Notes under the pieces: generated by a model | Seen by the model: the letters and a program-made list of their open reading frames with translations, nothing else | Databases searched by the model: none | What the model was told of the DNA's origin: nothing | In this document: one piece after another, positions 8,271-57,335 of the stretch | Layout: every line of letters begins with the position of its first letter | How positions within the stretch are numbered: position 1 is the first letter of the stretch | From: a virus | Direction: 5' to 3' (one strand) | Length of the DNA stretch: 64,000 nt | Virus record (IMG/VR): IMGVR_UViG_3300031673_012789 | Translations under genes and position numbers: made by a program

Positions 8271-8557
8271 TGTTCATAAATCTTAACAAGAGTATCTCTA
8301 AGAGCTCCTTCAAAAATTTTTTTATCAACTTTTTCAAATTCCTCACCAAAATTCTGTCGACAGAATTCAATATGATTTTCGCGTAAAGTATTAACTAATG
8401 CTCCATCAGTAACATTTATATGTAATACTCTATTTTTATCTTGACGATAATAATGGGTTCCACCTTCATCAATACGTCTAAAACACGCTCCTATTTCATC
8501 GGTGCTATCAGGATTTTTATATCCTACACAAGTTACAATTTTTTGATTAACGTCCAT
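8267..8557 (-). CDS. hypothetical protein (96 aa)
   Basis: ORF track. Confidence 0.4.
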   Translation of the reverse strand: MDVNQKIVTCVGYKNPDSTDEIGACFRRIDEGGTHYYRQDKNRVLHINVTDGALVNTLRENHIEFCRQNFGEEFEKVDKKIFEGALRDTLVKIYEQ

Positions 8558-8558
8558 T

Positions 8559-9734: not shown

Positions 9735-9737
9735 GAT

Positions 9738-10070
9738 TTATTTCTTTCCTGTTAAAACCCAATAATCACATCCTTGGCTTGGGCCTTCATATAAATCTAC
9801 TTTATCTTCCCATCCGGCAGCATGATATCTTCTTGCAAGTTCTGATCTCATTAATTTTTTTCTTGTTTCTTTAATATGAATTTGTCTATCTTCACCTGGA
9901 AGATAATCAAATCTCACAATACTAAACTCTATAGAAACTGAGTTATTATCAAAATCCCTTATAATTTTCTCATCAATATATTTTTCAATTTTATCGATGA
10001 TTCTTAATTCTTCTGCAGACAAAGGATCCTCCTTGAGTTTCTTCTTTATTTCACTATACTTTATTGCCAT
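9738..10070 (-). CDS. hypothetical protein (110 aa)
   Basis: ORF track. Confidence 0.4.
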   Translation of the reverse strand: MAIKYSEIKKKLKEDPLSAEELRIIDKIEKYIDEKIIRDFDNNSVSIEFSIVRFDYLPGEDRQIHIKETRKKLMRSELARRYHAAGWEDKVDLYEGPSQGCDYWVLTGKK

Positions 10071-10329
10071 TTTCTTTTACTTTTACATCCTTAAAATATC
10101 TCATTGTGATAAATGTTCCAACACCTGCTCCTAACATTGAAGATAAAAGAAGCCAGTTATTGTCAACATATCCTATTGTTATTTTTGCAAACAATATCCA
10201 AGCTATCATATTCATCATAGTAGCTAAGTATGTTTGATTTCTAGCAATTGATTTAATTACATAAATATAAACAATATGCCAAACTACTGTTGCAAAGAAT
10301 GCTATTACATGTGGCCAAAATATTTCCAT
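10054..10329 (-). CDS. small integral membrane protein (3 predicted TM helices)
   Basis: Hydrophobic stretches across 91 aa. Sits inside the NAD island. Confidence 0.4.
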   Translation of the reverse strand: MEIFWPHVIAFFATVVWHIVYIYVIKSIARNQTYLATMMNMIAWILFAKITIGYVDNNWLLLSSMLGAGVGTFITMRYFKDVKVKENGNKV

Positions 10330-10330
10330 T

Positions 10331-11260
10331 TTAAAAAATTAAAGATCCTTCGTCATCCCAAGCCCAATAGAGTTTTCCATTTTCTCTTAGAATAACATAT
10401 TTTAGATTTTCGTTTGATTCATTTTTAGCCATACAATCATCATCAATTGCTACAGACATTCCATCAATTGAATAAACCCAAGCTCCAAAAGGAAGTTTAT
10501 ATCCTCGCTTTCCTTCTCCACCTTTCCTATATTCATATCCTGATGCATGTTCATGCCAAACTTCTCCAGCAATGTATTCTTCAATTTGAGTAATTACTTT
10601 GTCTTTACATGCATTTTCATCTACCCATTCAGATTCTGGAGTATCATATCCACCTCCATAAAGTTTACGGAAAGTAATTTGATCAGCCCCAAGTTCTTTA
10701 CATCTCATTAAAATATCTTCTGGATATTTGTTATCATAAACATTTGTCATATTCAAAGACAAACGAAGATTAAATCCCTGGTCTTTTATAAATTTGCATA
10801 ATTCGGGTAAATCTCTTCTTAATTTTTTAGGAGCCCCTATAATATTCCAGTTGTTTTCGGAATCGAAAATATCAGAAACTGAAAGAGAAATTGTGTTAAC
10901 ACCGAGTGCCCTTAGAAATACTGCATTAAAATATACTGCTTCTCCACTTCTTATATGTTCGGAAACTTGGTCAAGTAAAACTCCGGTAGTTTGAAGTTCT
11001 ATATTTGGAAAAGGATTATTTTCGTCTATTAGAACTCCTTCAAGCAAATGTAAAAATGTTGAATTTTGAAGCGGTTCTCCTGTTCCTGTTAAAATTAAGG
11101 TAGTTACATTAGCTATAGCAGCTCTTTTTATTCTTTTTCGATAAGCTATTTCATCAAAATTATTACAGTAAGGATTATCGTGCATTTTTGATACACAAAA
11201 CTTACAATTATTTACACATGCTTTTGTGGGTACTACTACGGAAATTGATTGTATGTCCAT
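10331..11260 (-). CDS. radical SAM domain protein
   Basis: CVNNCKFC is a CxxxCxxC motif near the N-terminus. Gly-rich LTGTGEP SAM-binding motif. Confidence 0.6.
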   Translation of the reverse strand: MDIQSISVVVPTKACVNNCKFCVSKMHDNPYCNNFDEIAYRKRIKRAAIANVTTLILTGTGEPLQNSTFLHLLEGVLIDENNPFPNIELQTTGVLLDQVSEHIRSGEAVYFNAVFLRALGVNTISLSVSDIFDSENNWNIIGAPKKLRRDLPELCKFIKDQGFNLRLSLNMTNVYDNKYPEDILMRCKELGADQITFRKLYGGGYDTPESEWVDENACKDKVITQIEEYIAGEVWHEHASGYEYRKGGEGKRGYKLPFGAWVYSIDGMSVAIDDDCMAKNESNENLKYVILRENGKLYWAWDDEGSLIF

Positions 11261-11334
11261 TCTGTTAGATTTAATTATCTTTAATACAGATGTAATATAA
11301 CCAAAATACTTGTGATAAAAAAATATTTTGGCAA

Positions 11335-11790
11335 CTATTTTTTAATTTTATCTATTCTTTTTTGAAGGATATCTGCTTTTTTATAGTCTTCATTTTTTAA
11401 TGCTTCCTTTAAACGATCCTCTAATTCATTGATTTCGTATTTTGTCAAAGATTCATTAAATATATCAGGTTTTGAAAGAGAATATGGATCAACATAATAT
11501 GACCATCCTTCATCCCACATATCAAGAGGAAGATTAATAGGACCAGAACTTTGCATCATCATTTTAAAGAAACCACCAATACCAGTCATTTCATCTTCGT
11601 CTCCTCTTCTATTGTCTCTTTCTACATAAACACACCCATTAGCCACTCCTAAAAAAATAAGTGCAATACCAATATAAGCTCTGTCTCTTATATCTTCTTC
11701 TTCAAGTCCTGGAATAGGTTTAGAAGGTTGAATTCGGGTTATTAAATCCCCCTTCTTAAAATCATAAATTGACATAGGTGTTTGCTTCAT
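11335..11790 (-). CDS. hypothetical protein (151 aa)
   Basis: ORF track. Confidence 0.4.
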   Translation of the reverse strand: MKQTPMSIYDFKKGDLITRIQPSKPIPGLEEEDIRDRAYIGIALIFLGVANGCVYVERDNRRGDEDEMTGIGGFFKMMMQSSGPINLPLDMWDEGWSYYVDPYSLSKPDIFNESLTKYEINELEDRLKEALKNEDYKKADILQKRIDKIKK

Positions 11791-11792
11791 AA

Positions 11793-12296
11793 CTAATATA
11801 ATTTTTCAAGTTCATCCCAAAATTCTTGGTATCTTCCATCAAACAAATTGGATTTGAACTTTGGCCACTCATTTTTATATTTATTATACATTGAACTTTC
11901 AGTTCTTTTGCTATACTTAGTATTATAATATCTATCGCAGAGTTTTACGAAAGTAGCATGTTCAAATGCTTTAATTCCTTTATAATATTTTTCATTTGCT
12001 CTTTCATCTCGGTTTCTTCCTTTTTCATTCCAAAGAGCATATGAATATTCAGCAGCATTTTCCCCTAAAACTTTTTTAAGATCATTATAAGTTTCATGAG
12101 TATCTTCCAAAACATCATGAACCCAACATCCAACTAAAACTTTAGAAATTTCTAAGTTTGGAAGTAGATGAGAAAATCTTTTTGCAACATCAACTACCCC
12201 TCGTAAATGTACAGTATAGGGTAAGCCATCAAATGTTTGATTTACATTCCTATGGGCTTTTGTTGCATATATTTCTGCTTTATAAACTAAATTCAT
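11793..12296 (-). CDS. HD-domain hydrolase, RelA/SpoT-type (small alarmone hydrolase-like)
   Basis: H..HLRGVVDV ... WVHDVLEDT matches the SpoT/Mesh1 HD motif (H, HD, ..HDvvEDT). Confidence 0.55.
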   Translation of the reverse strand: MNLVYKAEIYATKAHRNVNQTFDGLPYTVHLRGVVDVAKRFSHLLPNLEISKVLVGCWVHDVLEDTHETYNDLKKVLGENAAEYSYALWNEKGRNRDERANEKYYKGIKAFEHATFVKLCDRYYNTKYSKRTESSMYNKYKNEWPKFKSNLFDGRYQEFWDELEKLY

Positions 12297-12943
12297 TACA
12301 TTAAATTAAACAAAGGAAGTTCCCAAGATTCAATTACTTTTATGTTATTGTCTAAAAATTCCTCCATTGTTTGTTTTACACCATCTCCTGAAATTGCTCT
12401 TGTTCCATCAAGAACAACAACAGTATTAAATCCTTTTTTAGCCGCATCAAGTGCTGTATCTTTAACACAAAAATCTAAAGCTAAACCACAAACAAATACT
12501 TGATGAACTTCCTTTTCTTTTAAAAATTCTTCCAATTCTTCTGCTCCAAATCCAGAATATGGATGTTCTTTTTCTTTCATCCCCTTTTTAAAGATATAAA
12601 AATCTCCTTTAATTAATCCAAGATCTATATCTCCATGTAAATCCGCTCCCTTAGTATTTTGCACACAATGAACTGGCCATAATGTATCTTCTTTACCTTT
12701 AGAGTTTGTATATTTTTCAAAGGGTTGTTTACCTTCTTTAGGGGAAGCAAATGCCTCCATTTTTTCTGGATGCCAATCTTTAGTAAAAATAACTAAGTTA
12801 AACCGTTTTAACAAATCATTAATAACTGGTATAATTTCATCTCCTCCTTTTACGGCCAAGGCTCCGCCTTGTTTATTTTCATATTCGTATTCAGAAGCAG
12901 GCATGAAATCATATTGAGCATCGACCACAATTAAAGCCTTCAT
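12296..12943 (-). CDS. pncA: nicotinamidase / isochorismatase-family hydrolase (PncA)
   Basis: VVDAQYDF (Asp), FTKDWH (Lys) and FVCGLALDFCV (Cys) correspond to the PncA catalytic triad context. Confidence 0.65.
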   Translation of the reverse strand: MKALIVVDAQYDFMPASEYEYENKQGGALAVKGGDEIIPVINDLLKRFNLVIFTKDWHPEKMEAFASPKEGKQPFEKYTNSKGKEDTLWPVHCVQNTKGADLHGDIDLGLIKGDFYIFKKGMKEKEHPYSGFGAEELEEFLKEKEVHQVFVCGLALDFCVKDTALDAAKKGFNTVVVLDGTRAISGDGVKQTMEEFLDNNIKVIESWELPLFNLM

Positions 12944-13024
12944 ATTTTTCTATTTTTAAGTTACATATAAATATAACAAAAATCTATGAATCTAGGAAAT
13001 AAAATGATTAAAAGTTTGTTAAAT

Positions 13025-13315
13025 TTATTTTTTATTGTTAGCTTTTCTAGCTAAAAATTCTCGCGTTTGCCTTCTATTAAGTTCCCTCATTTGTTCAGGA
13101 GTAAGCTGACCAAACTCTTCATATGCTTTAAAGACCTTGCTACTAGAAAAACTATAAGCAGGAATCCATAAAGGAAAAGTTAACCAGATTAAAAAGGATC
13201 TTATAAACCAAGCCGGGTAAACAACTATTTTTCCTAATTTTGTATAATCATCCCAATCTTCTTGAATATGGGTTTCATATAACCATAATATAAATTTTAT
13301 CAAATGTAGTTTCAT
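13025..13315 (-). CDS. hypothetical membrane protein (96 aa)
   Basis: ORF track. Hydrophobic segments. Confidence 0.4.
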   Translation of the reverse strand: MKLHLIKFILWLYETHIQEDWDDYTKLGKIVVYPAWFIRSFLIWLTFPLWIPAYSFSSSKVFKAYEEFGQLTPEQMRELNRRQTREFLARKANNKK

Positions 13316-13319
13316 GTTA

Positions 13320-14204
13320 TTATTTATTATATATGTTATCAGGTATACCTATAATTTTATTCCAAGGAATATTATAAGGATTCTGTCTTTTAAATTCTGA
13401 TTTTAAATGTCGTTGAATTACAGGATCTGTTAAATCATTGAGTTTACTTGATATATAGGTCATCAATCTTAAATCAACTAATTTATACCCATCTCTTGAG
13501 TTTCCTTCCCATCCTGGTAAAATTTGATCTAAATCAGTTTTCGAAATTCCTAGTCCATCAGTAGCATCAGCATTGATAACATCCATGATAACATCATAAG
13601 GATGTCCTTGAAGTTGACCTTTCCACCCAGTATATTCTTTTTTAGCAATATATTCTGTCATTTCATAAACTTCAGTTTTCCAGAGATTTTGAATCATTCC
13701 ATAATCTCCAACATCACCATGTAATGTCCAAAAACCAAGAAGATATTCTGTGTAATTATCAGTGGAAAGTACCATTCCATTGTTCCCACCAGCAATATCA
13801 TAAAGAAGAATCATACGAATTCTTGCTTTTATATTTCCATTCAAGATTTGATTGCCATAGTCTTCTCCGTCAGGATAATTTTCCGGAAGAACATTATGAT
13901 TATCATAAGCTACATCGGAAAGTTTATTAAATGCTGCTTTAATAGAAGTTTCTTTAAAATCAGTACAAAATAAGTTACCAATTTCTTTAGCTCTTGAATT
14001 TTCACCTTTGGAATTTGTATTTGAAGGTAATGACCGACCAATCAACGGGATATTTAATTCTTCACAGACTGGTTTGGCCAGTAATGCACAGAGGGTGCTA
14101 TCGATGCCCCCAGATACACCAAGTACTAAGGATTGTAAGTTACCTTTACTTATGTAGTCTTTAAGCTCAGACCTAATGTTTTTAACCGCTAATTCGTAGT
14201 TCAT
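13320..14204 (-). CDS. nadE: NAD+ synthetase (NadE, PP-loop ATP pyrophosphatase; could be the NaMN-amidating type)
   Basis: SGGIDS PP-loop motif (LVLGVSGGIDSTL). Length 294 aa. Confidence 0.75.
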   Translation of the reverse strand: MNYELAVKNIRSELKDYISKGNLQSLVLGVSGGIDSTLCALLAKPVCEELNIPLIGRSLPSNTNSKGENSRAKEIGNLFCTDFKETSIKAAFNKLSDVAYDNHNVLPENYPDGEDYGNQILNGNIKARIRMILLYDIAGGNNGMVLSTDNYTEYLLGFWTLHGDVGDYGMIQNLWKTEVYEMTEYIAKKEYTGWKGQLQGHPYDVIMDVINADATDGLGISKTDLDQILPGWEGNSRDGYKLVDLRLMTYISSKLNDLTDPVIQRHLKSEFKRQNPYNIPWNKIIGIPDNIYNK

Positions 14205-17704: not shown

Positions 17705-19108
17705 TTACTTTCCATTATTTCCTGTTCCTTTTTTCACAATAGTTCCCCATCCTTCAACACCTCTTATATATTGCCAATTTCCTTTTACAGAAAACCATGC
17801 AATCATAGGATAAATAAGAGGTTCAACAAATGCAACAGCTAATAATTTAATTACATCCCTTTTTCTCTCATATTTATGGAATGTTAATTCTTCAAATAAT
17901 ACAGACCATGAAGACATAAATACAGCAAAAGCATAAATAAAGAGATATAATAATCCAAAGAATCCCCAATTAATTAAACCAGTTGCGGCTAAGTAAATAG
18001 TAAATCCAAATCCAACAAAAGCAAGAAGAGGTGCTAACCATTCAAAGAATAACCAAAATGGATATCCAAGTAATCCTAATTTTCCATATTTTTTATTTAA
18101 GAACATCACTTTATGTTTTCTAAGTGCGTACACTAGTCCTCTAGCCCACCTTGCTCTTTGGCTTTCTAAAGATTTATAATCAGAAGGAACTTCAGTCCAA
18201 CATAATGGGTCAGGAATATAAGTAACTTCATATTTTTCATCTTTTTCAGCCATGTATCTTCTCATACGAATAACCATTTCCATATCTTCTCCAATAGCTT
18301 TAGTATCATACCCTCCTGAATTAATAAGTATTTCCCTATCAAATAATCCCATTGCACCAGATATAAGAAGCAATCCATCTAATTGTGACCAAGCCATTCT
18401 ACCAAGTAAAAATGCCCTAGTATATTCAAGAGCTTGCCATCTCGGTAAAAATTTTTGTGGTAAATTAATTTTTTTGATAACACCATTTTCAACTTCACAT
18501 GAATTCATAATTCGAATTACACCACCAGTTCCAATAACTTTTTTGTCTTTTTCTTCAAGGAATGGCTTTACTAATTTAGTGATTGAATCAGGTTCTATCA
18601 CACAATCAGCATCCATAATCAAAACAAGGTCATTCCTACAAATATTGATACCTGCATTACTAGCATCAGCTTTACATCCACCATTAACTTTATCTACAAC
18701 AGTCAATTTTGAAAATTCCTTATTTCTTGATTTGTAAATTCCTTTTATTTTTTTACAAGGGATTCTATATTCAAAAAAGTAATTAGCTTTTGATAGCTTA
18801 AACGTATCTTTTAAGAGTTTAAATGTATCATCAGTAGACCCATCATTAACAATAATGACCTCAAAATTTCGATAATGTAATTTCATAAGTGTTTTAACAC
18901 TGTCTATAATGTTTGCACTTTCATTATAAGCTGGAGCAATAATAGATACTGATGGTGATAATGGTGAAGTTGCCACGGCATTGTAATCTACATAACTATT
19001 TTTTCTTAGGTAATTTCTTAATTTTTTAACCGAGAAATATCCTAGTACAAAATAACAAATAAAAATAACTAGTGTAAATAAAAACACAAAATTTATAAAG
19101 AACCACAT
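17705..19108 (-). CDS. family-2 processive glycosyltransferase (PgaC/IcaA/cellulose-synthase-like)
   Basis: IIVNDGSTDDT, DADCV and QRARWARG (QxxRW) motifs. N- and C-terminal TM helices. Confidence 0.7.
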   Translation of the reverse strand: MWFFINFVFLFTLVIFICYFVLGYFSVKKLRNYLRKNSYVDYNAVATSPLSPSVSIIAPAYNESANIIDSVKTLMKLHYRNFEVIIVNDGSTDDTFKLLKDTFKLSKANYFFEYRIPCKKIKGIYKSRNKEFSKLTVVDKVNGGCKADASNAGINICRNDLVLIMDADCVIEPDSITKLVKPFLEEKDKKVIGTGGVIRIMNSCEVENGVIKKINLPQKFLPRWQALEYTRAFLLGRMAWSQLDGLLLISGAMGLFDREILINSGGYDTKAIGEDMEMVIRMRRYMAEKDEKYEVTYIPDPLCWTEVPSDYKSLESQRARWARGLVYALRKHKVMFLNKKYGKLGLLGYPFWLFFEWLAPLLAFVGFGFTIYLAATGLINWGFFGLLYLFIYAFAVFMSSWSVLFEELTFHKYERKRDVIKLLAVAFVEPLIYPMIAWFSVKGNWQYIRGVEGWGTIVKKGTGNNGK

Positions 19109-19119
19109 AATATTATTTT

Positions 19120-20340
19120 TTAATTAATTTTTTTATCAAGTACATGCTTAATGATGATATTGTAATTTTTGTAATCAGAATCCATCATCTTTTTCAATTG
19201 AACATCACCAACTTCACCCATATTTTTAATTGCCTTAACACCTTCAATTTGAAGTTCTGTATCTTCTTCAATATCAACAACATTTTGAAGAAAGCGAATT
19301 GTTTTTGGGTTTGCTATTTTTCCTAAAGTTTTTATGATTTCTACTTTATTTTCGTATGGTTCTGTTTTGTATATTTTTTTCAAAGGAGAACACAATGGTT
19401 CAACATTTAAATCCCCTACTACTTCAATTGCTAACTTAACAACCTTTTCACTTGGATGATAAAGCATATTGTTTAAATCATCTATGGTTTTTAGTTGTTC
19501 ATATTCTCTCATCATTCTTAAACAAAACATACCTACACTATGATTATCAGAAACTAACCATCTTCCAAAATAAGGAGGAGTTATTTTTGATTCAACCATA
19601 AGCTCATGAAGAGTAATTTGTTCCCAAACTGAAAAAGGATGGGTCAAATGTTCTAAAAATGAAAAAGCATCTTCTACAGCTCCAGATAATCTTACCATTG
19701 CAATTTGAGCTTCCATTCTAAGAACATCATTATTAGAGTTGATATATTTCATCACCTTTTCATTATAGTCAATAATTTCAAGATGAGATAATTCTTTCAA
19801 TGCTTTAACTTTCTTATGCCATTTCCTGCTGTATAGCTTTTTCTTTGTATCATCAATTAAACCTAAATGAAAATATAATTTTCTTAGTTTTGCTAAAACA
19901 TCTTTAGGCATCATTAACGCTACATCAATTATTTGGTCAATTAATATGTTTCTTCTAAACTGGCTATTACATATCTTTTTAAATTCCACCTGAGTAATAA
20001 TTTTATCATCAACAGCATCTAATATCAATGTTTGATATTTTTCAGTTAATGAAGCTTTAATTTTAGCCCGTTTTTCCATTCTTCTTCTATTAATTAGAAC
20101 AAAAAGTAGAATTAAAACCATTGCAGAAAAACAAATTACAATTGAACCAATCAATAGGTTCATGAATGCAAAAGAAGTCCCGAGTATTACAATTTGTTTT
20201 AAAAATAGAGTTTCAGCTCCATGTCCTGTTACCGCATTCATAATAACAGGATTAAATTGTGTTTGCATAATGAAACTGCCAATAAATAGCAGCGTCATAA
20301 TAATAACAGGAATTAGTATTTTTATTTTATGTCTCATCAC
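19120..20340 (-). CDS. membrane protein with C-terminal HEAT/PBS-lyase-like repeats, putative synthase accessory subunit
   Basis: N-terminal TM helices. Repeated alpha-helical LxxLG..N motifs in the C-terminus. Adjacent to the GT2 synthase. Confidence 0.45.
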   Translation of the reverse strand: MMRHKIKILIPVIIMTLLFIGSFIMQTQFNPVIMNAVTGHGAETLFLKQIVILGTSFAFMNLLIGSIVICFSAMVLILLFVLINRRRMEKRAKIKASLTEKYQTLILDAVDDKIITQVEFKKICNSQFRRNILIDQIIDVALMMPKDVLAKLRKLYFHLGLIDDTKKKLYSRKWHKKVKALKELSHLEIIDYNEKVMKYINSNNDVLRMEAQIAMVRLSGAVEDAFSFLEHLTHPFSVWEQITLHELMVESKITPPYFGRWLVSDNHSVGMFCLRMMREYEQLKTIDDLNNMLYHPSEKVVKLAIEVVGDLNVEPLCSPLKKIYKTEPYENKVEIIKTLGKIANPKTIRFLQNVVDIEEDTELQIEGVKAIKNMGEVGDVQLKKMMDSDYKNYNIIIKHVLDKKIN

Positions 20341-47060: not shown

Positions 47061-48263
47061 TTAAAATAATTGTTTGTTACTTGATAATCTATCAATTTCT
47101 TTAAAAATGCTTGATTCTGTTCCTTTTCCAGTTCCACCTTGTTTTTCTTTTACATATCGTGTTCCTTGCAACATTGTATTCATATTTACACCGGAAATAT
47201 CTGGTCTTGGGCGAACCAATTGGTCTTGTTTAAGTTCCTCAAATTTTTCTACTATTTCTTCTGGAAATAAAGTTTTGTCTAAGACAACTAATTTAATTTG
47301 CCTCATTAATCTGTCTTCTATTTTCCAAGGAGGAGATTGTTTTGCAGCTTTACGAATGCCTTGTATAACTTTATCTTTTCGTTCCATTAAATCATAATGG
47401 TCAACTGATTCTCCTGGAGAATTTTTAAGTGATTCATAAAGTTTTTCAAATTTAGCATTAGTGAAACGAACTTCTTTATCTTCACCAGCTGCTGTTTTAG
47501 TCATCCAAGTATAAATAGCTGGAATATTATCACCATCATCACCACAGAACACCTTTTTCATTGCGATAAGGAGTCCATTAGTTTCTTCAACTCGTACATC
47601 CTCAGTGTCCCTGATACGCTTAAAATCACCTTTGTCTACATCAATAGCTGCGTTCATATTCCAAATATCCGCTACTTCCGTTTCATTAAGCCACTCATTA
47701 AAATATTTAGGGGAGACATATAATTTCCTTGCAGCATTTTTACCTTGTTTGAAAGGATTAAAAACAGTAGCAAATTTTCTTTTACCATCATCGCCTACAG
47801 TTGCAGAAACTAATTGACGAATATCTTCATCGCCAGAAACTAAAATAACATGTTGTTGTTGGTTGAAAAGTAATTCATCTCTCCACATTGCAATGATATC
47901 ATCAGCTTCAGCATTTGGAATAGAAGTAACAATCATTCCATTATCCACCATAATTTCAAGGAATTCATCCATGATATGATAAATATTATCCCAATTAATA
48001 TGTGCAGCTGATTTACGGTGACCTTTATACCCTTCATTTTCCTCAATGGAAATATTTTTACGCCAAGAACGGTCATCCTTAGCAAATATAATTCTTGAAG
48101 GATTGATAAGACGAACTAAAAAAGAAATATCCATAGCAATTTTTCTCATTAATTCATCAGTTTCTCTTTGGGAATCAAATGTATATTGCTTTGAACCAAA
48201 ACCTCCTAACACAAACATACTCCTAAAAAGCATGTTGTTCATATCGAATACTAAATTAGTCAT
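47061..48263 (-). CDS. 5'-3' exonuclease / flap endonuclease (T4 RNase H-like)
   Basis: N-terminal LVFDMNNMLFRS (FEN N-domain) and VSGDEDIRQLV (the GDxD..QL motif of 5' nucleases). Confidence 0.6.
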   Translation of the reverse strand: MTNLVFDMNNMLFRSMFVLGGFGSKQYTFDSQRETDELMRKIAMDISFLVRLINPSRIIFAKDDRSWRKNISIEENEGYKGHRKSAAHINWDNIYHIMDEFLEIMVDNGMIVTSIPNAEADDIIAMWRDELLFNQQQHVILVSGDEDIRQLVSATVGDDGKRKFATVFNPFKQGKNAARKLYVSPKYFNEWLNETEVADIWNMNAAIDVDKGDFKRIRDTEDVRVEETNGLLIAMKKVFCGDDGDNIPAIYTWMTKTAAGEDKEVRFTNAKFEKLYESLKNSPGESVDHYDLMERKDKVIQGIRKAAKQSPPWKIEDRLMRQIKLVVLDKTLFPEEIVEKFEELKQDQLVRPRPDISGVNMNTMLQGTRYVKEKQGGTGKGTESSIFKEIDRLSSNKQLF

Positions 48264-48451: not shown

Positions 48452-48901
48452 TTATAATAAATTTAAGTGTCCTGTTATTTTATCAATTTTATCTGGATCA
48501 TCTGGACCAATAGCACAACAAGTTATAGTAACTTCTCCTCCAAATTCAGTTAATCCTTTATCTTCAATAAGTGCACAAGGAATACTCATTGCTTTAGCTT
48601 TTCTATATACTTCTACACATTCACTAAGAGATTCAGCTCCAACTACAATTTTCTTAAATGAAGAATTTATCCATTGAAACATTGGTTCATCAAAATGTAA
48701 TTTAATTTCGGCAGTCATAATATGCTCACTATTTTTATCTACTACCCATTCTCTTTTTGTATGAGGTCCTAAAAATGCTTCTAGTAATACAGCTAAAGAA
48801 GCATGAGCACCTTGGGCAATCATCTTTCCCTTCCTCATATTGAGGTCTTTACGCATCACTATTACTTGTTTAGGTTCACTCATAATACTTAATATAACCA
48901 A
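48452..48901 (-). CDS. peptidyl-tRNA hydrolase, PTH2 (archaeal/eukaryotic type)
   Basis: VIVMRKDLNMRKGKMIAQGAHAS closely matches the PTRH2 core ([23 protein letters not shown]). Confidence 0.7.
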   Translation of the reverse strand: MVILSIMSEPKQVIVMRKDLNMRKGKMIAQGAHASLAVLLEAFLGPHTKREWVVDKNSEHIMTAEIKLHFDEPMFQWINSSFKKIVVGAESLSECVEVYRKAKAMSIPCALIEDKGLTEFGGEVTITCCAIGPDDPDKIDKITGHLNLL

Positions 48902-49592
48902 AATTATTGGGATAAAAAAATTCTAGAATATTAAATTTCTGTTAAGAAAGCATCATACCTTTAGGTTTCTCTTCATAGAGAATATATGTGACTACATCTC
49001 TATTTTCAATACCAGTTCCATTTACAGAAATTATATTGATCCCTTCATTTTCTTTTAACCATGATTGAATATCACCATCAACACCCGATAAATTGGCACT
49101 ATAAATTGCTTTTATTTTTCTCATAATCTATCTCCTTCATTAAAAATAGTAGCCCATTCAGGATCTACTAAAAGTTCTTTGTATAAACCTGATTCTTTTT
49201 TGACATAAAAATGATATTCATACGGATTTTTTAGAGTATCAACTTCTATTTTTAAAATAGTTGAGTTAACATTTCTATTTAAATTATCATATTTTACTTG
49301 ATCTTCCGAAGTACAAGCGGCAATTAATAAACTTGAAAAGAATACGAATATTCCTAGAGTATATCCGAAGTTTTTAAAAAATTTTTTCATATCTTTGCTT
49401 CTTTAGTTATTTCAGGGTATTCCATTTTTGCTACTCTTCCAGGATAAGTTATGTTATCTACTTCTAAATCTACTACAATAGCTCCACAATCTTGACACCA
49501 CTTGACTACTTCCCACGTTCCATCCCAATCATGTTGAGAATTATAAATAGGTTTAAGATTGTGTTCTCCTGTTTTTATACAATCTGGTATTT

Positions 49593-50543
49593 TCATTTTA
49601 ATATTGTTTGAATTTTAAACACACATGATAACAAAGTTATAAGTGGATCAATAACCATAGTTCTTTGAGCCTGATGTTCAGCCACTGCAATTATAATAAG
49701 AGGAACTTTATCTATTTTTGATGGAGCATTACTTTTAATATATTCCACAAGGTCTACACCTAATGCATTAAGAGTATCATCTATCCTTGATGAATATTCA
49801 CTAACAATAAGTTTGTAGTTTTCATAAGGTTTTTCTGGTCCAGCTAAACAAAGTTTAAATAAATCAACATAATCAAAATTGATATTAAAGTTCTTTGCAT
49901 TTAATTCTTTTATACCTTGAAGATAAAATGATTGAATTTTATTCATAAGACTTCTCATATCTGGAAAATCATTACGAATAAACTTATCTAGTATTTCATC
50001 AGTATAAGTAATTTTGGCTGCGTTTAAGATCGCCCCAACTCTTTTCTTATACTCTTCAATAATATAAGTCTCCTCTTCATTATTTAATGAGTCATAAGAA
50101 ATACAATTAAATCGAGATTGTACAGGATCTGGAACCTTTTGAATATAATTACAAGATGCTATAAACCTAGCAACATTTGCATACTTCTCCATTACAGCTC
50201 TTAAAGCTTTAAAGAATTCTTCTGTTGCACCATCAACCTCATCCAATATAACACATTTAAGTTTCTCTCTTCCTCCTTCCAATGAAATTGAAGAACAGAA
50301 TTTTCCAATTCTTTCTCTAATTACATCAATACCACGTTCAGATGATGCATTAATGTACAATGTAGTATGTGGTTCTGATAAAATAAATAATGTTGAAGTT
50401 TTTCCTGTACCCGCAGATCCATACAATAAAAGATTTTGGACTAATCCCTTATTTAATTCATTTTTTATACGTGGTGGGGCTATAAGTTGTCCCAAGTTTT
50501 TGGGACGGAATTTCTCCGTAAATAGCTGATCTATTGTACTCAT
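49593..50543 (-). CDS. clamp-loader AAA+ ATPase subunit (T4 gp44 / RFC small-subunit-like)
   Basis: Walker A LLYGSAGTGKTS. Walker B VILDEVD. 316 aa like gp44. Confidence 0.65.
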   Translation of the reverse strand: MSTIDQLFTEKFRPKNLGQLIAPPRIKNELNKGLVQNLLLYGSAGTGKTSTLFILSEPHTTLYINASSERGIDVIRERIGKFCSSISLEGGREKLKCVILDEVDGATEEFFKALRAVMEKYANVARFIASCNYIQKVPDPVQSRFNCISYDSLNNEEETYIIEEYKKRVGAILNAAKITYTDEILDKFIRNDFPDMRSLMNKIQSFYLQGIKELNAKNFNINFDYVDLFKLCLAGPEKPYENYKLIVSEYSSRIDDTLNALGVDLVEYIKSNAPSKIDKVPLIIIAVAEHQAQRTMVIDPLITLLSCVFKIQTILK

Positions 50544-50585
50544 TTATTCTTTTTGTTTATATGTATATATGTACCAATGGTTTTC

Positions 50586-51005
50586 TTATCCAAATAAGAA
50601 AATTAATTGATCACCATCAGCAAAAATCTTTCTTCCTTTGTAAATACCACCGAACATTTTCTTAACTGCATTAGTAACAGAAGATCCGGCTCCTTTTAAT
50701 GTGTAAACAATTGCTGGACCAGTCCAAATAACATCTTTAGCCTTTTCATCTGACCCATGGAACATTGTAAATCTTGAGGACACATCAATTTTTTTATTTT
50801 CAAACTTATCACTCATAACCTTTTGGACATATTGTGCCATAAGCTGTTCAATTCCTGGCCAGTTATCTTTCCACCAATTAAAATTATTATCTAGTGTATT
50901 GATAGCAGACTCAACGTATGGAAATTGATCTTCGGTGCTATTTTGAAAAATAATTCCATTTACTTCTCTAGCATCTTCAGTTATAAGTTTGACTTTAATT
51001 TTCAT
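50586..51005 (-). CDS. hypothetical protein (139 aa)
   Basis: ORF track. Confidence 0.4.
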   Translation of the reverse strand: MKIKVKLITEDAREVNGIIFQNSTEDQFPYVESAINTLDNNFNWWKDNWPGIEQLMAQYVQKVMSDKFENKKIDVSSRFTMFHGSDEKAKDVIWTGPAIVYTLKGAGSSVTNAVKKMFGGIYKGRKIFADGDQLIFLFG

Positions 51006-51495
51006 CGATATGTTTTATTTTATTTATTCATCTAATAACTTCATAGGATTCCCGATTCTCCACCTATTGCATTCTATTCCTTGGCCCATTATATCCAAGT
51101 GTTATAGGGTTGCTACCTGTTGAATGCAGCAATTTATTGATCGTATCTGCACTTAGTTACTAGCATTCAATTTCGATGATGGTGCCATCATCTAATTGAA
51201 CAGTGGCAATATTATCTTTCCACTCTTTTATTATTCCTTCAAATTTTTCACCTTTACGGTTTGGCCACCAAACTCTTTCACCTTTAAGACACATGTAGTC
51301 TATTTGTCTAAGATATTTTTTCATATTATATATTTGTTAAATACCATAAGGCCATTTCATGATCTTTTTCTGGTATATTTGAAAAATCATATACACCTTC
51401 TAAATGAATCTTTCTTTTACCTAAAGATACCACTTTTCTAACGGTAACTTTAGAAGAACCTTGAACGGTAAATTTATTTGTATTATCAAATGTTA

Positions 51496-52044
51496 TCATA
51501 TCAAATAATTTTGAAATTTCTCAACTGCCATTTCTATTCTTTCATCATGGTTAAAAGCCCATTGTTTTCCACCTTGAAATACTTCAGATATTTCCATCCA
51601 TTTCACTTGACTTATTTCTTTATCTTTAAATTGTTCAACTTCTCTTGGAAGTTTCATAAACTCATAAATAAAAATATATGTTAATGAAACATTTTGTTTT
51701 GCATCTGTTGTTGGATCAGTATGAGTATAAAATGGTTGCCCATCATTATCAAATACTAAATCCTTTTTATGATCAGGAATATGAAAAGAAGTTTCCTCAT
51801 AAGTTTCTCTTATAATACCTTCCATACCATTTTCATCCCAATCCATATATCCCGAAACAACTGCCCATTTGTTGGGTTCGTCCATCATCGCTGATCTTTT
51901 TTCAGTCAATACATAAATATTATCACTATTATATTCGGTAGCGAGTATAACAGCAACAATAGCTGGAGAACGAGATAACCAAACTTTTCGACCATCTTTC
52001 AATTCTACTTCTTCGTTTCCTCTATTTTTAAATGTGGGTTTCAT
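51496..52044 (-). CDS. NUDIX hydrolase
   Basis: Nudix box GMEGIIRETYEETS (GX5EX7REUXEEXGU). Confidence 0.7.
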   Translation of the reverse strand: MKPTFKNRGNEEVELKDGRKVWLSRSPAIVAVILATEYNSDNIYVLTEKRSAMMDEPNKWAVVSGYMDWDENGMEGIIRETYEETSFHIPDHKKDLVFDNDGQPFYTHTDPTTDAKQNVSLTYIFIYEFMKLPREVEQFKDKEISQVKWMEISEVFQGGKQWAFNHDERIEMAVEKFQNYLI

Positions 52045-52337
52045 ATTTTATATATTACTAACTTATTTAAAGAGTTATTGGTTTTTGGGTAACATCTAGA
52101 TCCTCGGCTTCTAAAAGTTTAGTGTAATGAGCAAAAGCATTATGCAGCAATTCACTTGACTCATAATGTAAATATGCGGGCTTAGTTTTTCCATAATAAG
52201 CGATTATCAAAGAAAATGCAGCCCCGAAATCTTCGGTTTTAGGTCTATCTCGATGTATATATACCGAATACGCTCCTGTAAGATTTATAAGTTCTTCAGC
52301 TTGTAAATCATGATACCATTTGTCTTGTTTTTCCATT

Positions 52338-52592
52338 TTATGTAAGTTTTATCATTTGTGATACATCTTTTGATTCTATAAGAAATAATACTCTTTCATG
52401 ATAAAGTTTAAAATCTTCTTCTTCTTTAAAATCCCATGTGGCATCAGCTCCATCCATCATTCTAAAATAAAGTTTATGATATGCATCATTATTCCACACA
52501 TGAACATATAATACTTTATCTAAATTTATCGGTTCTCCAAAATCACCTGCATCCTTTAAAACTTCTCTGTCACTAACATGTATAAAATTCAT
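52338..52592 (-). CDS. hypothetical protein, tandem paralogue A (MNFIH...)
   Basis: Shares N-terminus MNFIH and the motif W(D/Y)F with the adjacent 52596..52838 product. Confidence 0.4.
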   Translation of the reverse strand: MNFIHVSDREVLKDAGDFGEPINLDKVLYVHVWNNDAYHKLYFRMMDGADATWDFKEEEDFKLYHERVLFLIESKDVSQMIKLT

Positions 52593-52595
52593 AGT

Positions 52596-52838
52596 TTAAA
52601 GTTTTACTGTATCATTAATATTCTTTGACCCTAATTCATTTTTTATATTCTCGAAAGTAAGCTTTACTAATTCCTTTTCTTTAACAGGAAAATACCAGGC
52701 TGCCAATTCCTTTCCATATTTTGTATAAAAAGTTATAGAATGCTCGTAATTATCAGTTCTTACAAAGTGTTTAACCATTGCAACACATTCTAAATCAACA
52801 GGATGATGTCTTTGTTCAGGTCCGTGTATAAAATTCAT
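52596..52838 (-). CDS. hypothetical protein, tandem paralogue B (MNFIH...)
   Basis: See paralogue A. Confidence 0.4.
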   Translation of the reverse strand: MNFIHGPEQRHHPVDLECVAMVKHFVRTDNYEHSITFYTKYGKELAAWYFPVKEKELVKLTFENIKNELGSKNINDTVKL

Positions 52839-52868
52839 TTGCTTTAAGTGTTAAAAACAACTGAGGCC

Positions 52869-53966
52869 TTATTGGTACCTCAGCTGTCTGATTGCTATTA
52901 ATAATGTATTAACTAAATCTGCATCAACCTTGTTTGGAAGATCAGAATTATTAAACAATTCATCAAGGCCTTCAATTTTTTCTTCAGCTTCATAAAGAAG
53001 CTTGTGATAATCATATTCACCTTTGCGAATTGCCATTAGAGTTTCAATTTCTTCAGGAGGTCTACGAACAATAATTTCTCCATTAGCAATTTCAGTTGCC
53101 ATGTTCAATAGACGGAAAGTATGCATCATGTTTTTTGAGTCATAATTCTTTCCATGTTCCTTGTTCATCTTAAAACGATCTTCATTTCTGTTTTCCAACC
53201 ATTCCTTATATTCTGCATATCTCTTGCAATGAGTTGAATAAGCATCCTTGTTAAAAGTTAAGTATGCTTCAACCATTAATCCCTTAAGAATAGAAGTAAG
53301 TTGAACATCATTAGCCTTTTCAATATCTCCAACAATTCCACTTCCTTCGTGTCTTTCCGGAAGTCTGTACAATGCATAAATGTCATGAGCATGGTCAACC
53401 TTCGCAAGACCAAAATCTTGTTGAGTATAAACATTAACAGTATTTTGACTATATTTCTTAAGCCATTCATGAAGAGAAACAGTCCCTCCTCGCTCAAGAA
53501 TATAACAAAAATCAAGAACATTCTTACGAACCATTTGTTCTTCTTCCCAATTAATCTTTTTGTTATATCCTCTTGCCTTCTTAATTTGTCCAATTGCATA
53601 ACCAGCAAATGAGTTCTTACATTGCTTAGTAATAAAATTCTTCTTTTGTTCAAGAATTATATCAAAGATAGGATCTTTATAAACAATACAATCTTCCGGT
53701 GCATTAAGCAATTCAAGAATGTTAGGGTTATTAGTTCTAACTAATTCTAAGAATCTCTTAATTTCATAGAAAACAATATCATTTTTGTTATCGGCAACTT
53801 GATCAACATAACCAAATCCATAGATATCATCCTTTGGTTGAATGTAAATACCCCTGATATCTGTGTCGGAAGTTGGCATGGAAGTTCCATAAGCATGGGA
53901 TCCCATGATTGCCTCAAAAATAATTAAATTTTTTTCTCTTAGTGTATCAATTGTATATTGTCTCAT
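52869..53966 (-). CDS. Pol-beta-superfamily nucleotidyltransferase (possible tRNA nucleotidyltransferase/RNA-repair NTase)
   Basis: IMGSHAYGTSMPTSDTDIRGIY is a GS..G...SDxD NTase-fold signature. Encoded two genes away from a Thg1-like enzyme. Confidence 0.5.
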   Translation of the reverse strand: MRQYTIDTLREKNLIIFEAIMGSHAYGTSMPTSDTDIRGIYIQPKDDIYGFGYVDQVADNKNDIVFYEIKRFLELVRTNNPNILELLNAPEDCIVYKDPIFDIILEQKKNFITKQCKNSFAGYAIGQIKKARGYNKKINWEEEQMVRKNVLDFCYILERGGTVSLHEWLKKYSQNTVNVYTQQDFGLAKVDHAHDIYALYRLPERHEGSGIVGDIEKANDVQLTSILKGLMVEAYLTFNKDAYSTHCKRYAEYKEWLENRNEDRFKMNKEHGKNYDSKNMMHTFRLLNMATEIANGEIIVRRPPEEIETLMAIRKGEYDYHKLLYEAEEKIEGLDELFNNSDLPNKVDADLVNTLLIAIRQLRYQ

Positions 53967-54523
53967 ATTTCTTCTTTAAATGCACTTTGTGTTATAACTC
54001 TTTCTGGATATGTCCATCCTATTCTTTCGTTTCCATCTGAAATAATCCCTATAGGATCGTATTTTCTTGAAGAATCAATTTTAGCCACTGTACATTTCTT
54101 AAATTCTTTCCAATGAGAATAAGAATGTACTCTAATAACTCTCATTCCTACTTCAATATTATATCCTAAAAAATCTTTAAATTCACTCATTTCTTTTTAG
54201 GTTTATATTCTTTAGGAAAGTTATCTAAATCTATAATAGGTTTAGACAATGCTTCTTTAATTAAATCTATAGTTCCAATAAGATCATCGAGATCATCCCA
54301 ATTTCCTAGAGTATTTTTACTACTCGTGTGCATATGCGGTTTTCCATCTTCATCATAATAAACTTCCTCAATAGAAAACAATCTTTGGTCTTTATTTTCT
54401 GATAATTTAGAGTTATTAGCAAACGCTTTTTTATAAGAGAAAACATGCGTACATATTCTATAATTCCAGCTCATTTCTATGTTTTAAAATTAAAATATAA
54501 CTAAAATAATCGACACGAAAAAA

Positions 54524-55279
54524 TTATTCGTAAATTATTTTAGGAATTAAATCTGAAAGAATTTGTCTTTCTTTTAAGAAATCTAGTGTTTCTATTATCC
54601 AATTACCATTAACTGCTTTTACTATTGTTCTACCTCTTTTAAATCCATCAGGTAAATCATTCCAATTTTCTCCTTTAGTATGAATCATTTCATGCATATC
54701 AGATTGTGACTTGCTATGTAACTCTTTATGTGAAAATAATGATTGTGCATGCATTGATAATGAGTTTCTAACAGCATCCTTTTGTCTCCAAACAAAATAG
54801 TTTTCAACTTCAACAGGGTCTGGAATAGTAAAGACTCTTGCATCAAATAATGCTAATGGTTGTGATGCCATAGTAAATATAGTATCGGCAATATCTATAT
54901 CTCTACCACTTATTATCTGCCCAAGCATTTCCTGGTTGAACTTTGCAGCTGCCATTGAAGCAGAAACAGAAACCATTTTCTGAACTTGGCCATCAAACCA
55001 AGCATCAGTTGTAATCTTAGTAAAGTCAGTTAACAACAATGAAATTTCATCTGATTGGACATATGCCAACTCGCATCCTTGAATTTCTTCACACAAGAAT
55101 TTAGCAGTGTTATCCATTGCTGCCATAAACTTTTTGTCATAAGGTCTATCCATACCTCTTGTAAAAGTGTGAAACGCTTTACCATCAAGCCTAATAATCG
55201 TATATGTTCTGCGAGGAAGAAAAGTACGAGTCCTTTGCTCATATTGTGTCTTCATCCTTGTTCCTAAATCATCTTTCAT
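54524..55279 (-). CDS. Thg1-like protein (tRNA-His guanylyltransferase / 3'-5' polymerase family)
   Basis: IIRLDGKAFHTF and VQSDEISLLLTDF align with the Thg1 catalytic motifs (vRiDGknFhkF; fgeSDEySFil). Confidence 0.7.
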   Translation of the reverse strand: MKDDLGTRMKTQYEQRTRTFLPRRTYTIIRLDGKAFHTFTRGMDRPYDKKFMAAMDNTAKFLCEEIQGCELAYVQSDEISLLLTDFTKITTDAWFDGQVQKMVSVSASMAAAKFNQEMLGQIISGRDIDIADTIFTMASQPLALFDARVFTIPDPVEVENYFVWRQKDAVRNSLSMHAQSLFSHKELHSKSQSDMHEMIHTKGENWNDLPDGFKRGRTIVKAVNGNWIIETLDFLKERQILSDLIPKIIYE

Positions 55280-55859
55280 TTTCTAAAACTCGTTTAATTT
55301 TTTCATTCACTATTTTATAAGCTCTTAACTTATACTCAATTCTTATATCATTTTTTACATACTCAGGTTGTTTTTTCCAATTATCTCTAACACCTCTTTC
55401 ATATTTCACAATAGAAGATTGTTTCCATGATTCATCATTGAGCATTTTACTTTTTAAGTTGGACATTATGAATTCTTTTACACTTCTAATATCCTTTACA
55501 CTATAATGATAACAATGTTTTTTAATATCACCCCAATATATCGAAGAACCGACTTTTACAATGAACTTTATTATGTTTTGTTTTTCTTTTTTAAGAAATT
55601 CTGTAATTAATTCTCTTTCTTTTAATAACTTATCTAATCTATATTTTTTAGATAGCCTTTTGTAATGTATTATATTATTTTCTATCCATCTTTTGGTAAC
55701 TTCTTTATCATGCCTTCTTTTTTCAGGATCGGAATATCTTTTTTTCTTTTTTTCTTTTTCGCATTCTAAGCATCTTACATGCTTTTGATTATCGTAATGA
55801 TATATTGCATGTTCGGATATTCCATGAAGACCTTTTTTACATTCCCGTTGAATTCTCAT
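55269..55859 (-). CDS. hypothetical basic protein with N-terminal Cys-x2-Cys zinc-ribbon-like motif
   Basis: ORF track. CLECEKEKKKK. Confidence 0.4.
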   Translation of the reverse strand: MRIQRECKKGLHGISEHAIYHYDNQKHVRCLECEKEKKKKRYSDPEKRRHDKEVTKRWIENNIIHYKRLSKKYRLDKLLKERELITEFLKKEKQNIIKFIVKVGSSIYWGDIKKHCYHYSVKDIRSVKEFIMSNLKSKMLNDESWKQSSIVKYERGVRDNWKKQPEYVKNDIRIEYKLRAYKIVNEKIKRVLENER

Positions 55860-56235
55860 TATTCAATTAGTTTTAATTTTTCTAAAGTTTTTTTACAAGC
55901 ATCCAGACTTTCCTGAATTCTTGCATCTACAGTAACAGCTTTAATTGCTGCCATAGTTTCTTCAGACATATTATTAAATGCCCAATACAAAATTTCAAAA
56001 TCCTCTTTCGATCCTGCCATGTATACAGGAGTCCATCCTCCCATATTTTCTGATCCTATTCTACCTATTATCATTTTCTATAATTAAATCTTGTGTGTCT
56101 AATTCGTCTTTTATTCTCTGGTCTGCTTCATCAGCTAATCCTTCTTCATCTAAAAATTCCCATAAGATTCTTAATTGCTCTTCTAACCAAAGCATTTTAG
56201 CATTGTCATTTACAAATACTACGTAATCTCTTTCT

Positions 56236-56784
56236 TTAATCATAAAGATATCTGTTTAATTCCTTTTTAACATTATGTTGAGATTTAAATGCCTCCATTT
56301 CAAAGGGTAGTGAAATGTCATATTTTTCAACTACTCCAGGTTCACCCTTCCAAATATACGTTTTTCCACTTACTTGTAAATCGCCCCGTTCATATTGATC
56401 AATATGAACAAATTCATGAGATAATATTTCTTTTAACTTCTCAAATGCCAATCCTCTTTTAAGTAATATAAGATACTTGTGTTCTCCAAATGGTAATTTT
56501 TGTACAAAACCAAAGAATTCCATTTCCCCTTCATTTGCAACAATTGGAATATAATAAATTTTCAAGTCTAATGTATTAATATCAAACACATCATAAGCCA
56601 ACACCTTTACAATGGTATCGGCTCGATATTCAGTTCCATTTGTGACCATAACAGTCTCAGGAAATGTTCGAACATTAAATGGTCTTGCATCTCTTTTCTT
56701 TTGAATCGTTAAAAGTATAATAATCGCTATTACAGCTAAAACAATTATACCTACTACCCATCCGGCTACTTTTTTATTCTCCAT
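56236..56784 (-). CDS. membrane-anchored putative zinc metallopeptidase
   Basis: N-terminal TM helix. HEFVH (HExxH) motif. Confidence 0.4.
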   Translation of the reverse strand: MENKKVAGWVVGIIVLAVIAIIILLTIQKKRDARPFNVRTFPETVMVTNGTEYRADTIVKVLAYDVFDINTLDLKIYYIPIVANEGEMEFFGFVQKLPFGEHKYLILLKRGLAFEKLKEILSHEFVHIDQYERGDLQVSGKTYIWKGEPGVVEKYDISLPFEMEAFKSQHNVKKELNRYLYD

Positions 56785-57335
56785 GCTACTATATTTTTAA
56801 TATCTACTGAATCTTCCCAAATAAATTGAGATTCTTTTTTCTCTTTATCAGTTTTCGGACATATTTTCCAGTTTGGATTTTCTTTTGTCGGTATTTGAGT
56901 TGGGATTTCCATCCTATGAGTTTCCCAATCCCCTTTGAACTCATCAACCCATTTAATCGTGCCATTTTCAAAAATGACTTTAACAGGCATACCTTCCTCA
57001 GGTTTTTCATGCATATTTCTACACCAATAATCCGGATCATCTAATACATTAGTTAGAACCCAAATCTTAGCTTCGGCTTTGTTAATGCTCTTTCCACCTT
57101 TTCCTGCAACCATTCTCAATGCATCTTCTCCATAAGCATGATATTGTTTATCATCTGGAGCATACACAACAACATGGGGTTCTTTACCATTCTTCTGCAT
57201 TACTCTTCCTATACGCCATTCCTCATTAAATAAATGAATGATTGACACTCCTTTATTTGTAACAGGATATTGGCGTTTAGTTCCATCACTTCTTTCCCAT
57301 TCAAATCCATCCGACTTTTTATATTTCTGCGCCAT
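56766..57335 (-). CDS. hypothetical protein (189 aa)
   Basis: ORF track. Confidence 0.4.
   Translation of the reverse strand: MAQKYKKSDGFEWERSDGTKRQYPVTNKGVSIIHLFNEEWRIGRVMQKNGKEPHVVVYAPDDKQYHAYGEDALRMVAGKGGKSINKAEAKIWVLTNVLDDPDYWCRNMHEKPEEGMPVKVIFENGTIKWVDEFKGDWETHRMEIPTQIPTKENPNWKICPKTDKEKKESQFIWEDSVDIKNIVAWRIKK

Follow-up and report, generated by a model that had tools for sequence, protein, structure and literature searches.

Within a 64,000-nt stretch of viral DNA (IMG/VR record IMGVR_UViG_3300031673_012789; hereafter the window), which lies in a 65,489-bp JGI metagenome contig, we identified genes for three enzymes of RNA-end repair and translation rescue: a Thg1-like protein (TLP), an RlaP-family Pol-beta nucleotidyltransferase (NTase) and a PTH2-type peptidyl-tRNA hydrolase. 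The source is a large phage whose host is probably a member of the Bacteroidota, because a protein with a type IX secretion system (T9SS) sorting domain and a TonB-dependent receptor are encoded and the closest relatives are Lak, Tenacibaculum and huge uncultured phages. We propose with moderate confidence that the three enzymes are of known kinds, act separately, and are accessory genes in a long co-directional string, which runs on the minus strand throughout the window and in which stop and start codons of the genes of this region frequently overlap (from the list of open reading frames, ORFs). The three genes are as follows:

48452..48901, minus strand: PTH2-type peptidyl-tRNA hydrolase, 149 aa, with an insertion of ~25 aa at residues ~50-75
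52869..53966, minus strand: RlaP-family Pol-beta NTase, 365 aa, predicted to add 1-2 nucleoside monophosphates (NMPs) to the 3'-OH of broken RNA
54524..55279, minus strand: TLP, 251 aa, predicted to perform templated 3'-5' addition to 5'-truncated tRNA

The substrates, cooperation and counter-defence purpose that we envisage for them are these. TLP would rebuild missing tRNA 5' nucleotides with the 3' acceptor strand as template, RlaP would extend the 3'-OH of broken RNA by one or two NMPs, and PTH2 would strip peptides off peptidyl-tRNA and so make the tRNA reusable. Together they would keep the tRNA pool, host tRNAs and the 29 or more of the phage, usable despite end damage, most likely inflicted by host tRNA-targeting toxins, and any ligase or CCA-adding step would have to come from the host or from elsewhere in the phage genome. 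Repair or rescue of tRNAs against host nucleases had been suggested by an earlier reading made from the letters alone (the sequence-only reading) and is the standard reading for these three RNA-end enzymes. That account is partly supported, being right in spirit (tRNA end repair and rescue) and wrong in its specifics.

Family membership and catalytic residues of the three enzymes

Profile searches recovered the PTH2, Pol-beta NTase, Thg1-family and HD domains that the sequence-only reading had named, each at its coordinates on the minus strand. Family membership and intact catalytic residues were observed directly, and the family scores of TLP, RlaP and PTH2 lay well over curated cut-offs. The profile checks proposed earlier came out positive for PF01981 and for the Pol-beta NTase (as PF10127, RlaP), while an HD protein at 58110..58772 reached only 2e-4 against PF01966, just under the gathering score.

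TLP scored 106.7 bits against PF04446 (Thg1; gathering cut-off 29.2, E = 1.1e-30), which places the 251-aa protein inside the Thg1 family, and matched phrog_4717 at 5.9e-86. Its best solved relative was the TLP of Bacillus thuringiensis (BtTLP; 4KGK, E = 1.2e-52), with eukaryotic Thg1 enzymes matching far more weakly (1e-13 to 1e-8). The catalytic D/DE motifs had been called intact and are so: D32, D77 and E78 align with the BtTLP carboxylates D30, D75 and E76 (BtTLP residues from PMC3701042), and E14, R30, D32, S76, D77, E78, K101, R148 and N172 were invariant in an alignment of 14 phage TLPs and human Thg1, the human sequence agreeing with the C. albicans Thg1 alignment; E14 and R30 correspond to the NTP-binding Glu and Arg. 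Absent is HINNLYN, the motif by which true Thg1 reads the tRNA-His (GUG) anticodon (PMC6471195); the aligned segment reads VRNSL and adjoins a 6-residue deletion. Because HINNLYN is replaced or absent and BtTLP is the closest relative, we file the protein, on sequence grounds, as a bacterial-type TLP and not as a bona fide tRNA-His guanylyltransferase, the label carried by most of the 157 phage records that hold TLP homologues.

Bacterial TLPs repair 5'-truncated tRNAs (PMC3061083, PMC3701042), and the known activity of the class is Watson-Crick-templated 3'-5' repair of such tRNAs, not non-templated addition of G-1. Templated 3'-5' repair would be expected of the phage TLP because of its likeness to the biochemically characterised BtTLP (4KGK/4KGM), with which it shares ~50% identity over 220 residues, the three carboxylates, the triphosphate-binding residues and the lack of HINNLYN. 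It differs from BtTLP in being phage-encoded, with an activity that is predicted only, in a ~20-aa insertion (around residues 119-141) common only to the related IMG/VR contig L001, and in the activation-step Lys, which is Arg (R45) here and Lys or Arg among phage TLPs.

For RlaP, the match to PF10127 covered the N-terminal half (81.6 bits, cut-off 23, E = 9.5e-23) and that to phrog_388 the full length (3.6e-52). G22-S23 is conserved, and D34, D36 and D63 did not vary among five phage homologues. Of the 981 phage records with a homologue, those of uncultured phages of 635-642 kb come closest (45% identity), and Prevotella Lak phages and Tenacibaculum phage PTm1 rank next; a PDB sequence search returned no solved relative. 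RlaP enzymes add one or two NMPs to RNA 3'-OH ends with a preference for mimics of cleaved or damaged tRNA, can restore aminoacylation of tRNA that lost a nucleotide before ligation, and include T4 NrdC.11 (2025 preprint PMC12776372). The phage protein resembles NrdC.11 and the RlaP of P. fluorescens and P. aeruginosa in its PF10127 domain, its three catalytic Asp residues and its domain order, an N-terminal NTase and then a C-terminal helical region. It differs from known RlaP in its surroundings: no RNA ligase gene was found near it or elsewhere on the contig, and its recurrent neighbour is a Nudix hydrolase.

The sequence-only reading had paired this NTase with the HD protein at 58110..58772, in the manner of the head and HD domains of a CCA-adding enzyme. 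A split enzyme of this kind would have work to do, as CCA is encoded in few of the phage tRNA genes and some enzyme must therefore add it. However, the NTase matches PF10127 and no other NTase family, the HD gene lies 4 kb off with about ten ORFs between, and hosts whose tRNA genes lack encoded CCA cannot do without their own CCA-adding enzyme. On the evidence of family and fold the pairing is effectively refuted, and we give it next to no credence.

PTH2 scored 102 bits against PF01981 (cut-off 23, E = 2.5e-29), 104 bits against TIGR00283 (cut-off 82) and 111 against NF003314, the last falling under a stricter cut-off of 126. Its best solved relative was M. jannaschii Pth2 (2ZV3, 7.5e-24), with which the catalytic segments GK...QGAHA and ED.G.T align, and homologues were found in 33 phage records. 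As in archaeal and eukaryotic Pth2 (2ZV3; human PTRH2/Bit1), PF01981 is matched end to end and the catalytic segments are kept, the difference being that the insertion of the phage protein follows the first helix. PTH2 is phage-borne here, whereas bacteria usually use Pth1 (PMC7824862).

tRNA genes of the phage as candidate substrates

Most tRNA genes of the window fall in a single array:

36077..38825, minus strand: tRNA array holding 15 of the 17 tRNA genes of the window (ARAGORN and Rfam), candidate substrates

Another 12, in a second array, lie on contigs that reach beyond the window start, which brings the number of tRNA genes to 29, a minimum for the phage. The RNA-end genes had been described as lying within 10 kb downstream of the array, which misjudged both distance and direction: the array ends at 38825, PTH2 alone falls within 10 kb, TLP and the HD gene at 58110 are ~15.7 and ~19.3 kb away, and because all are on the minus strand the genes lie transcriptionally upstream.

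We examined the acceptor stems for the G.U or mismatched pairs at positions 1-2 that the sequence-only reading had reported for many of these tRNAs. Among the 17 window tRNAs, G1.U72 occurs in six and G2.U71 in one, with no non-pairing mismatch at positions 1-3, so the G.U part of the statement stands and the mismatch part falls. Of all 29, 20 have a Watson-Crick pair at 1:72, 7 have G.U and 2 have U.U, the last both Met(CAU) tRNAs, and positions 2 and 3 hold only Watson-Crick or G.U pairs without a single mismatch. These counts bear on a mitochondrion-like 5'-editing, in which bad encoded tRNA 5' ends would be removed and then re-synthesised by TLP. Its attraction lies in the frequency of G1.U72 (7 of 29 tRNAs, versus 2-4 G.U pairs at each other acceptor-stem position) and in the two U1.U72 cases. 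We nevertheless consider it most improbable: bacterial initiator tRNA is normally marked by a mismatch at 1:72, and with no encoded mismatch at positions 1-3 beyond the Met tRNAs the precondition for mitochondrial-type editing is missing. A cellular tRNA-Glu from a metagenome-assembled genome of Armatimonadota also has the same GGCCCGG/...GGGCT acceptor stem with G1.U72, and three acceptor-less tRNA-like remnants in the array, in which no acceptor stem can form, would not be rescuable by editing of 1-3 nt.

Addition of G-1 to a phage-encoded tRNA-His, a further role suggested for TLP, is quite improbable. Templated addition of G-1 opposite C73 is within the reach of TLPs (PMC3061083, PMC6471195), and two TLP-bearing relatives (L002, L003) carry tRNA-His genes with C73. 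Those genes, however, already encode G-1 opposite C73, which is the bacterial arrangement; RNase P can thus retain this G, and its addition is not required. No tRNA-His is present among the 29 tRNAs recovered, and the missing HINNLYN also speaks against this role.

A broader alternative is that the enzymes provide housekeeping quality control of the phage's own tRNA production and not counter-defence. Packed arrays would then give mis-processed ends for TLP and RlaP to repair, and PTH2 would handle drop-off in heavy translation or stop-codon suppression. The 29 or more tRNAs, the 4-nt spacing of tandem tRNA genes, the scarcity of encoded CCA, the presence of a suppressor tRNA(CUA), and the tRNA arrays found within 6 kb of TLP in L002 and L003 all accord with such a role. 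We hold it to be doubtful, as most other sampled TLP loci have no tRNA within 10 kb, there is no evidence of tRNA mis-processing, and the published context of RlaP is ribotoxin damage.

The tRNA genes show further peculiarities. Nearly all end in N73-C, with AA(A)T between this end and the next tRNA, and this CAAAT-G junction recurs in the arrays of L002 and L003. The suppressor tRNA with anticodon CUA (26482-26555, minus strand), labelled 'Pyl' by ARAGORN, suggests that TAG may be recoded in part of the phage genome; the window ORFs read through normally under code 11. 'Leu' tRNAs of class-I size (CAA, UAA and UAG; 37561-38006 and 38040-38585, minus strand) keep a Leu-like D-arm and lack the long variable arm, and many amino acids are served by one canonical tRNA plus one odd tRNA. 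Beside the tRNA array, in a stretch without long ORFs, lies a full-length GOLLD RNA (34385-34868, minus strand; RF02032, 162 bits versus a gathering score of 150) with a tRNA-like element inside it at 34726-34795.

Arrangement of the RNA-end genes along the contig

The self-contained module for tRNA repair described in the sequence-only reading was not borne out. The RNA-end genes are scattered accessory genes and not an operon-level self-contained module, because they are interleaved with replication genes, their order is limited to close relatives, their clustering is not beyond chance, and no ligase or CCA-adding enzyme was found on the contig. The genes standing among or beside them are:

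47061-48263, minus strand: 5'-3' exonuclease/FEN, interleaved with the RNA-end genes
49593-50543, minus strand: clamp-loader subunit, likewise interleaved
51496..52044, minus strand: Nudix hydrolase (PF00293, 7.5e-11) with an intact Nudix box, G-x5-E-x7-RE-xx-EE
55269..55859, minus strand: basic protein of 196 aa, its stop codon overlapping the start of TLP by 11 nt (ORF list)

About a dozen small ORFs without assigned function are also interspersed between the PTH2, RlaP and TLP genes. The 196-aa protein had no match in a Pfam search, and its homologue holds the same place directly before TLP in L001. From 48452 to 63705 the gene order is collinear with L001, at 60-78% protein identity, and with near-identical metagenome contigs. 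RlaP and Nudix form one recurrent pair, their genes overlapping in L001 and lying 2.7 kb apart in the 642-kb phage LR756502.1, where homologues of two window genes, the TonB-dependent receptor and the NadR-like gene, come after Nudix. In NCBIfam the Nudix protein weakly resembles the Nudix half of NMNAT/Nudix proteins. In the window, RlaP and Nudix are separated by tandem paralogous small ORFs (52338-52592 and 52596-52838, minus strand), both starting MNFIH, and by a third small ORF, all of which are absent from L001.

Several observations count against a module and against the role proposed above for the three enzymes. Gene order is kept only in close relatives (L001, L025 and L031). A Pfam census of 147 neighbour ORFs at ten other viral TLP loci found mainly nucleotide-metabolism genes, and an all-against-all comparison of these ten loci revealed no neighbour family common to more than three of them. 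When six RNA-related genes are placed at random among the ~116 ORFs scanned on the contig, three fall within 17 consecutive ORFs in ~55% of placements; counting only the three core genes, ~6% of placements are as tight. With essentially every ORF of the 65.5-kb contig scanned by Pfam, PHROGs or NCBIfam, no RNA ligase or CCA-adding enzyme was found, and the association with RNA ligases for which the RlaP family is named is not visible here. Finally, we know of no bacterial-immunity nuclease that removes tRNA 5' nucleotides.

At other TLP loci the neighbours vary. In L007 and L008, TLP stands directly before clamp-loader and FEN genes, without RlaP, Nudix or PTH2, and in L011 and L012 a TROVE homologue lies ~2 kb from TLP, with nothing else shared elsewhere. 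Weak support for a module comes from three of the five annotated TLP phages that we inspected, which have an RNA-end enzyme within 5 kb of TLP: XacN1 (an RNA ligase), Bacillus phage Goe8 (RtcB) and Vibrio phage 1.170.O (a COG0617 NTase). For bacterial Thg1 genes, association with RNA ligases, Macro domains and P-loop kinases of the polynucleotide-kinase type has been reported (PMC2904730).

The genes could also be functionally unrelated and near one another by chance, with TLP acting on non-tRNA RNA, PTH2 detoxifying N-acetyl-aminoacyl-tRNA made by GNAT toxins, and the Nudix and HD proteins working in nucleotide, nicotinamide adenine dinucleotide (NAD) or cyclic-nucleotide metabolism. This would agree with the non-significant clustering and the want of conserved neighbours across TLP loci, with the company that Nudix keeps in LR756502.1, and with the resemblance of the HD protein at 58110 to phosphodiesterases. 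Moreover, some TLPs act on non-tRNA substrates (PMC6471195), and TacT-acetylated tRNA is detoxified by Pth (PMC9241777). We regard a chance assembly as rather unlikely, however, since RNA or tRNA ends are the sole known substrates of all three core enzymes and the genomes of jumbo phages repeat this combination.

The phage genome recovered here is incomplete. All assemblies of it, which come from several samples, break at the same two points, one of them just beyond a kinase gene at the window end (described below); on the other side, contigs reach ~8 kb beyond the window start and cover the second tRNA array and, farther on, a ribosomal protein S21 gene. Exact-pattern scans of metagenome and viral contigs for an extension found nothing, and megablast of the region against phage records gave no match. 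A sigma-70 promoter scan returned the same counts as shuffled controls and was uninformative, and a terminator scan detected none on the minus strand.

Further genes and comparison with known systems

Five further genes could bear on RNA ends or RNA repair:

21488..23191, minus strand: TROVE (Ro60-like) protein, PF05731, 4.8e-11
43611..44231, minus strand: second HD protein, 206 aa, PF01966, 6e-7
58110..58772, minus strand: HD phosphohydrolase, with a conjectural part in tRNA repair
62713..63177, minus strand: stand-alone LigD-type 3'-phosphoesterase domain, PF13298, 1.1e-12
~64040-64426 (L025 368-754), beyond the window end: AAA_33 P-loop kinase, 128 aa, 1e-13, ~0.9 kb from the phosphoesterase

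The protein at 58110..58772 is clearly an HD protein on the basis of its match to phrog_19425 (3e-38) and an AlphaFold2 model with pLDDT 95. For the second HD protein, some of whose homologues are labelled YqeK by JGI, a PDB sequence search found no solved relative; the only meaningful Foldseek match in the PDB to its AlphaFold2 model (pLDDT 97) was YhaM (9H3F, E = 2.9e-3, TM 0.54). YhaM is a 3'-5' exoribonuclease, and judging by the model the protein is possibly a YhaM-like, nuclease-type HD protein with a conjectural link to tRNA. The best solved relative of the LigD-type phosphoesterase was 3P4H (1.4e-13), with the HWD.R motif aligned, and the kinase had no PDB relative by sequence search. 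Together these two enzymes could prepare RNA ends for RlaP or TLP by healing them, a role in DNA repair being equally possible.

If they do act on RNA, the phage might carry a ligase-independent repair kit for the acceptor end of tRNA and not for the anticodon loop. The LigD-type phosphoesterase would clear 3'-phosphates, RlaP and then the host CCA-adding enzyme would rebuild the 3' strand, TLP would rebuild the 5' strand against it, and PTH2 would remove peptidyl or N-acetyl-aminoacyl groups. Such a kit, which we consider unlikely, would protect against toxins that attack tRNA acceptor ends by cutting, extending or acylating them, and would give a bacterial-type TLP its first physiological role. 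In that case the missing ligase would carry meaning instead of reflecting incomplete sampling of the genome.

The TROVE gene, which fits a wider theme of RNA surveillance on the contig, shares it with genes for a major-vault-protein-like protein (MVP shoulder, Vault_3 and Band_7; 30771-33224) and a flotillin/SPFH protein (40752-42305), all on the minus strand. Ro-like and SPFH scaffolds have been proposed as RNA-repair cofactors. No Y RNA exceeded the Rfam threshold, the one match to YrlA being weak (E = 0.054) and overlapping two tRNA-Phe genes.

The phage also carries genes of other kinds. A set for NAD salvage and repair occupies 3915-14204 on the minus strand and comprises a NadR-like NMNAT/kinase (3915-4892), a Macro domain protein (4889-5368), a nicotinate phosphoribosyltransferase (NAPRTase; 8559-9734), an isochorismatase/PncA-like protein (12296-12943) and an NAD synthase (13320-14204), with a radical-SAM protein and a dCMP deaminase also present; the set may counter NAD-depleting defence systems. 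Cell-envelope genes lie within 5773-7734, 17705-21140 and 28772-30688 (minus strand) and encode the TonB-dependent receptor, a GT2 glycosyltransferase with a HEAT-repeat protein, a YaiO beta-barrel and a cadherin-repeat protein with the T9SS C-terminal sorting domain. The S21 gene (L039 3277-3471) sits a few kb past the second tRNA array, beyond the window start.

We return to the interpretation favoured above, three separately acting enzymes of known kinds, and to the systems that it calls to mind. A tRNA-rich phage with TLP, RlaP, PTH2, a Ro-like protein and possible end-healing enzymes offers a reasonable experimental handle on how phages keep translation going under tRNA-targeting immunity. 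Phage repair of host-inflicted tRNA damage is familiar from T4, whose Pnkp and Rnl1 act against PrrC, and the possible kinase and 3'-phosphoesterase of this contig recall that pair; the phosphoesterase here, however, is LigD-type and not HAD-type, the kinase is minimal at 128 aa, and no sealing ligase was found. Dictyostelium TLP3 likewise rebuilds tRNA 5' ends in mitochondrial 5'-editing, but the encoded mismatches at positions 1-3 of many tRNAs that accompany it are absent here. A phage Thg1 was noted by Anantharaman et al. (2010), who proposed a role in RNA repair (PMC2904730). A close counterpart is the repertoire of jumbo phages, in which many tRNAs are combined with RNA ligases, RlaP, a CCA-adding enzyme, sporadic Thg1, PTH2 and TROVE; a survey of these phages takes the combination to counteract the host's attack on tRNA (Iyer et al. 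2021, Viruses 13:63, PMC7824862, section 3.4.9). RlaP, Thg1, PTH2, TROVE and many tRNAs are shared with that repertoire, as is the proposed purpose; the survey reports a distribution of RlaP that mirrors RNA ligases (PMC7824862), whereas no ligase is visible on this incomplete genome. As a genomic observation the locus is one more example of a catalogued repertoire and not a new mechanism. It fits the known jumbo-phage picture, and its particular features are that no ligase is visible, that RlaP is paired with Nudix and that a LigD-type phosphoesterase is present.

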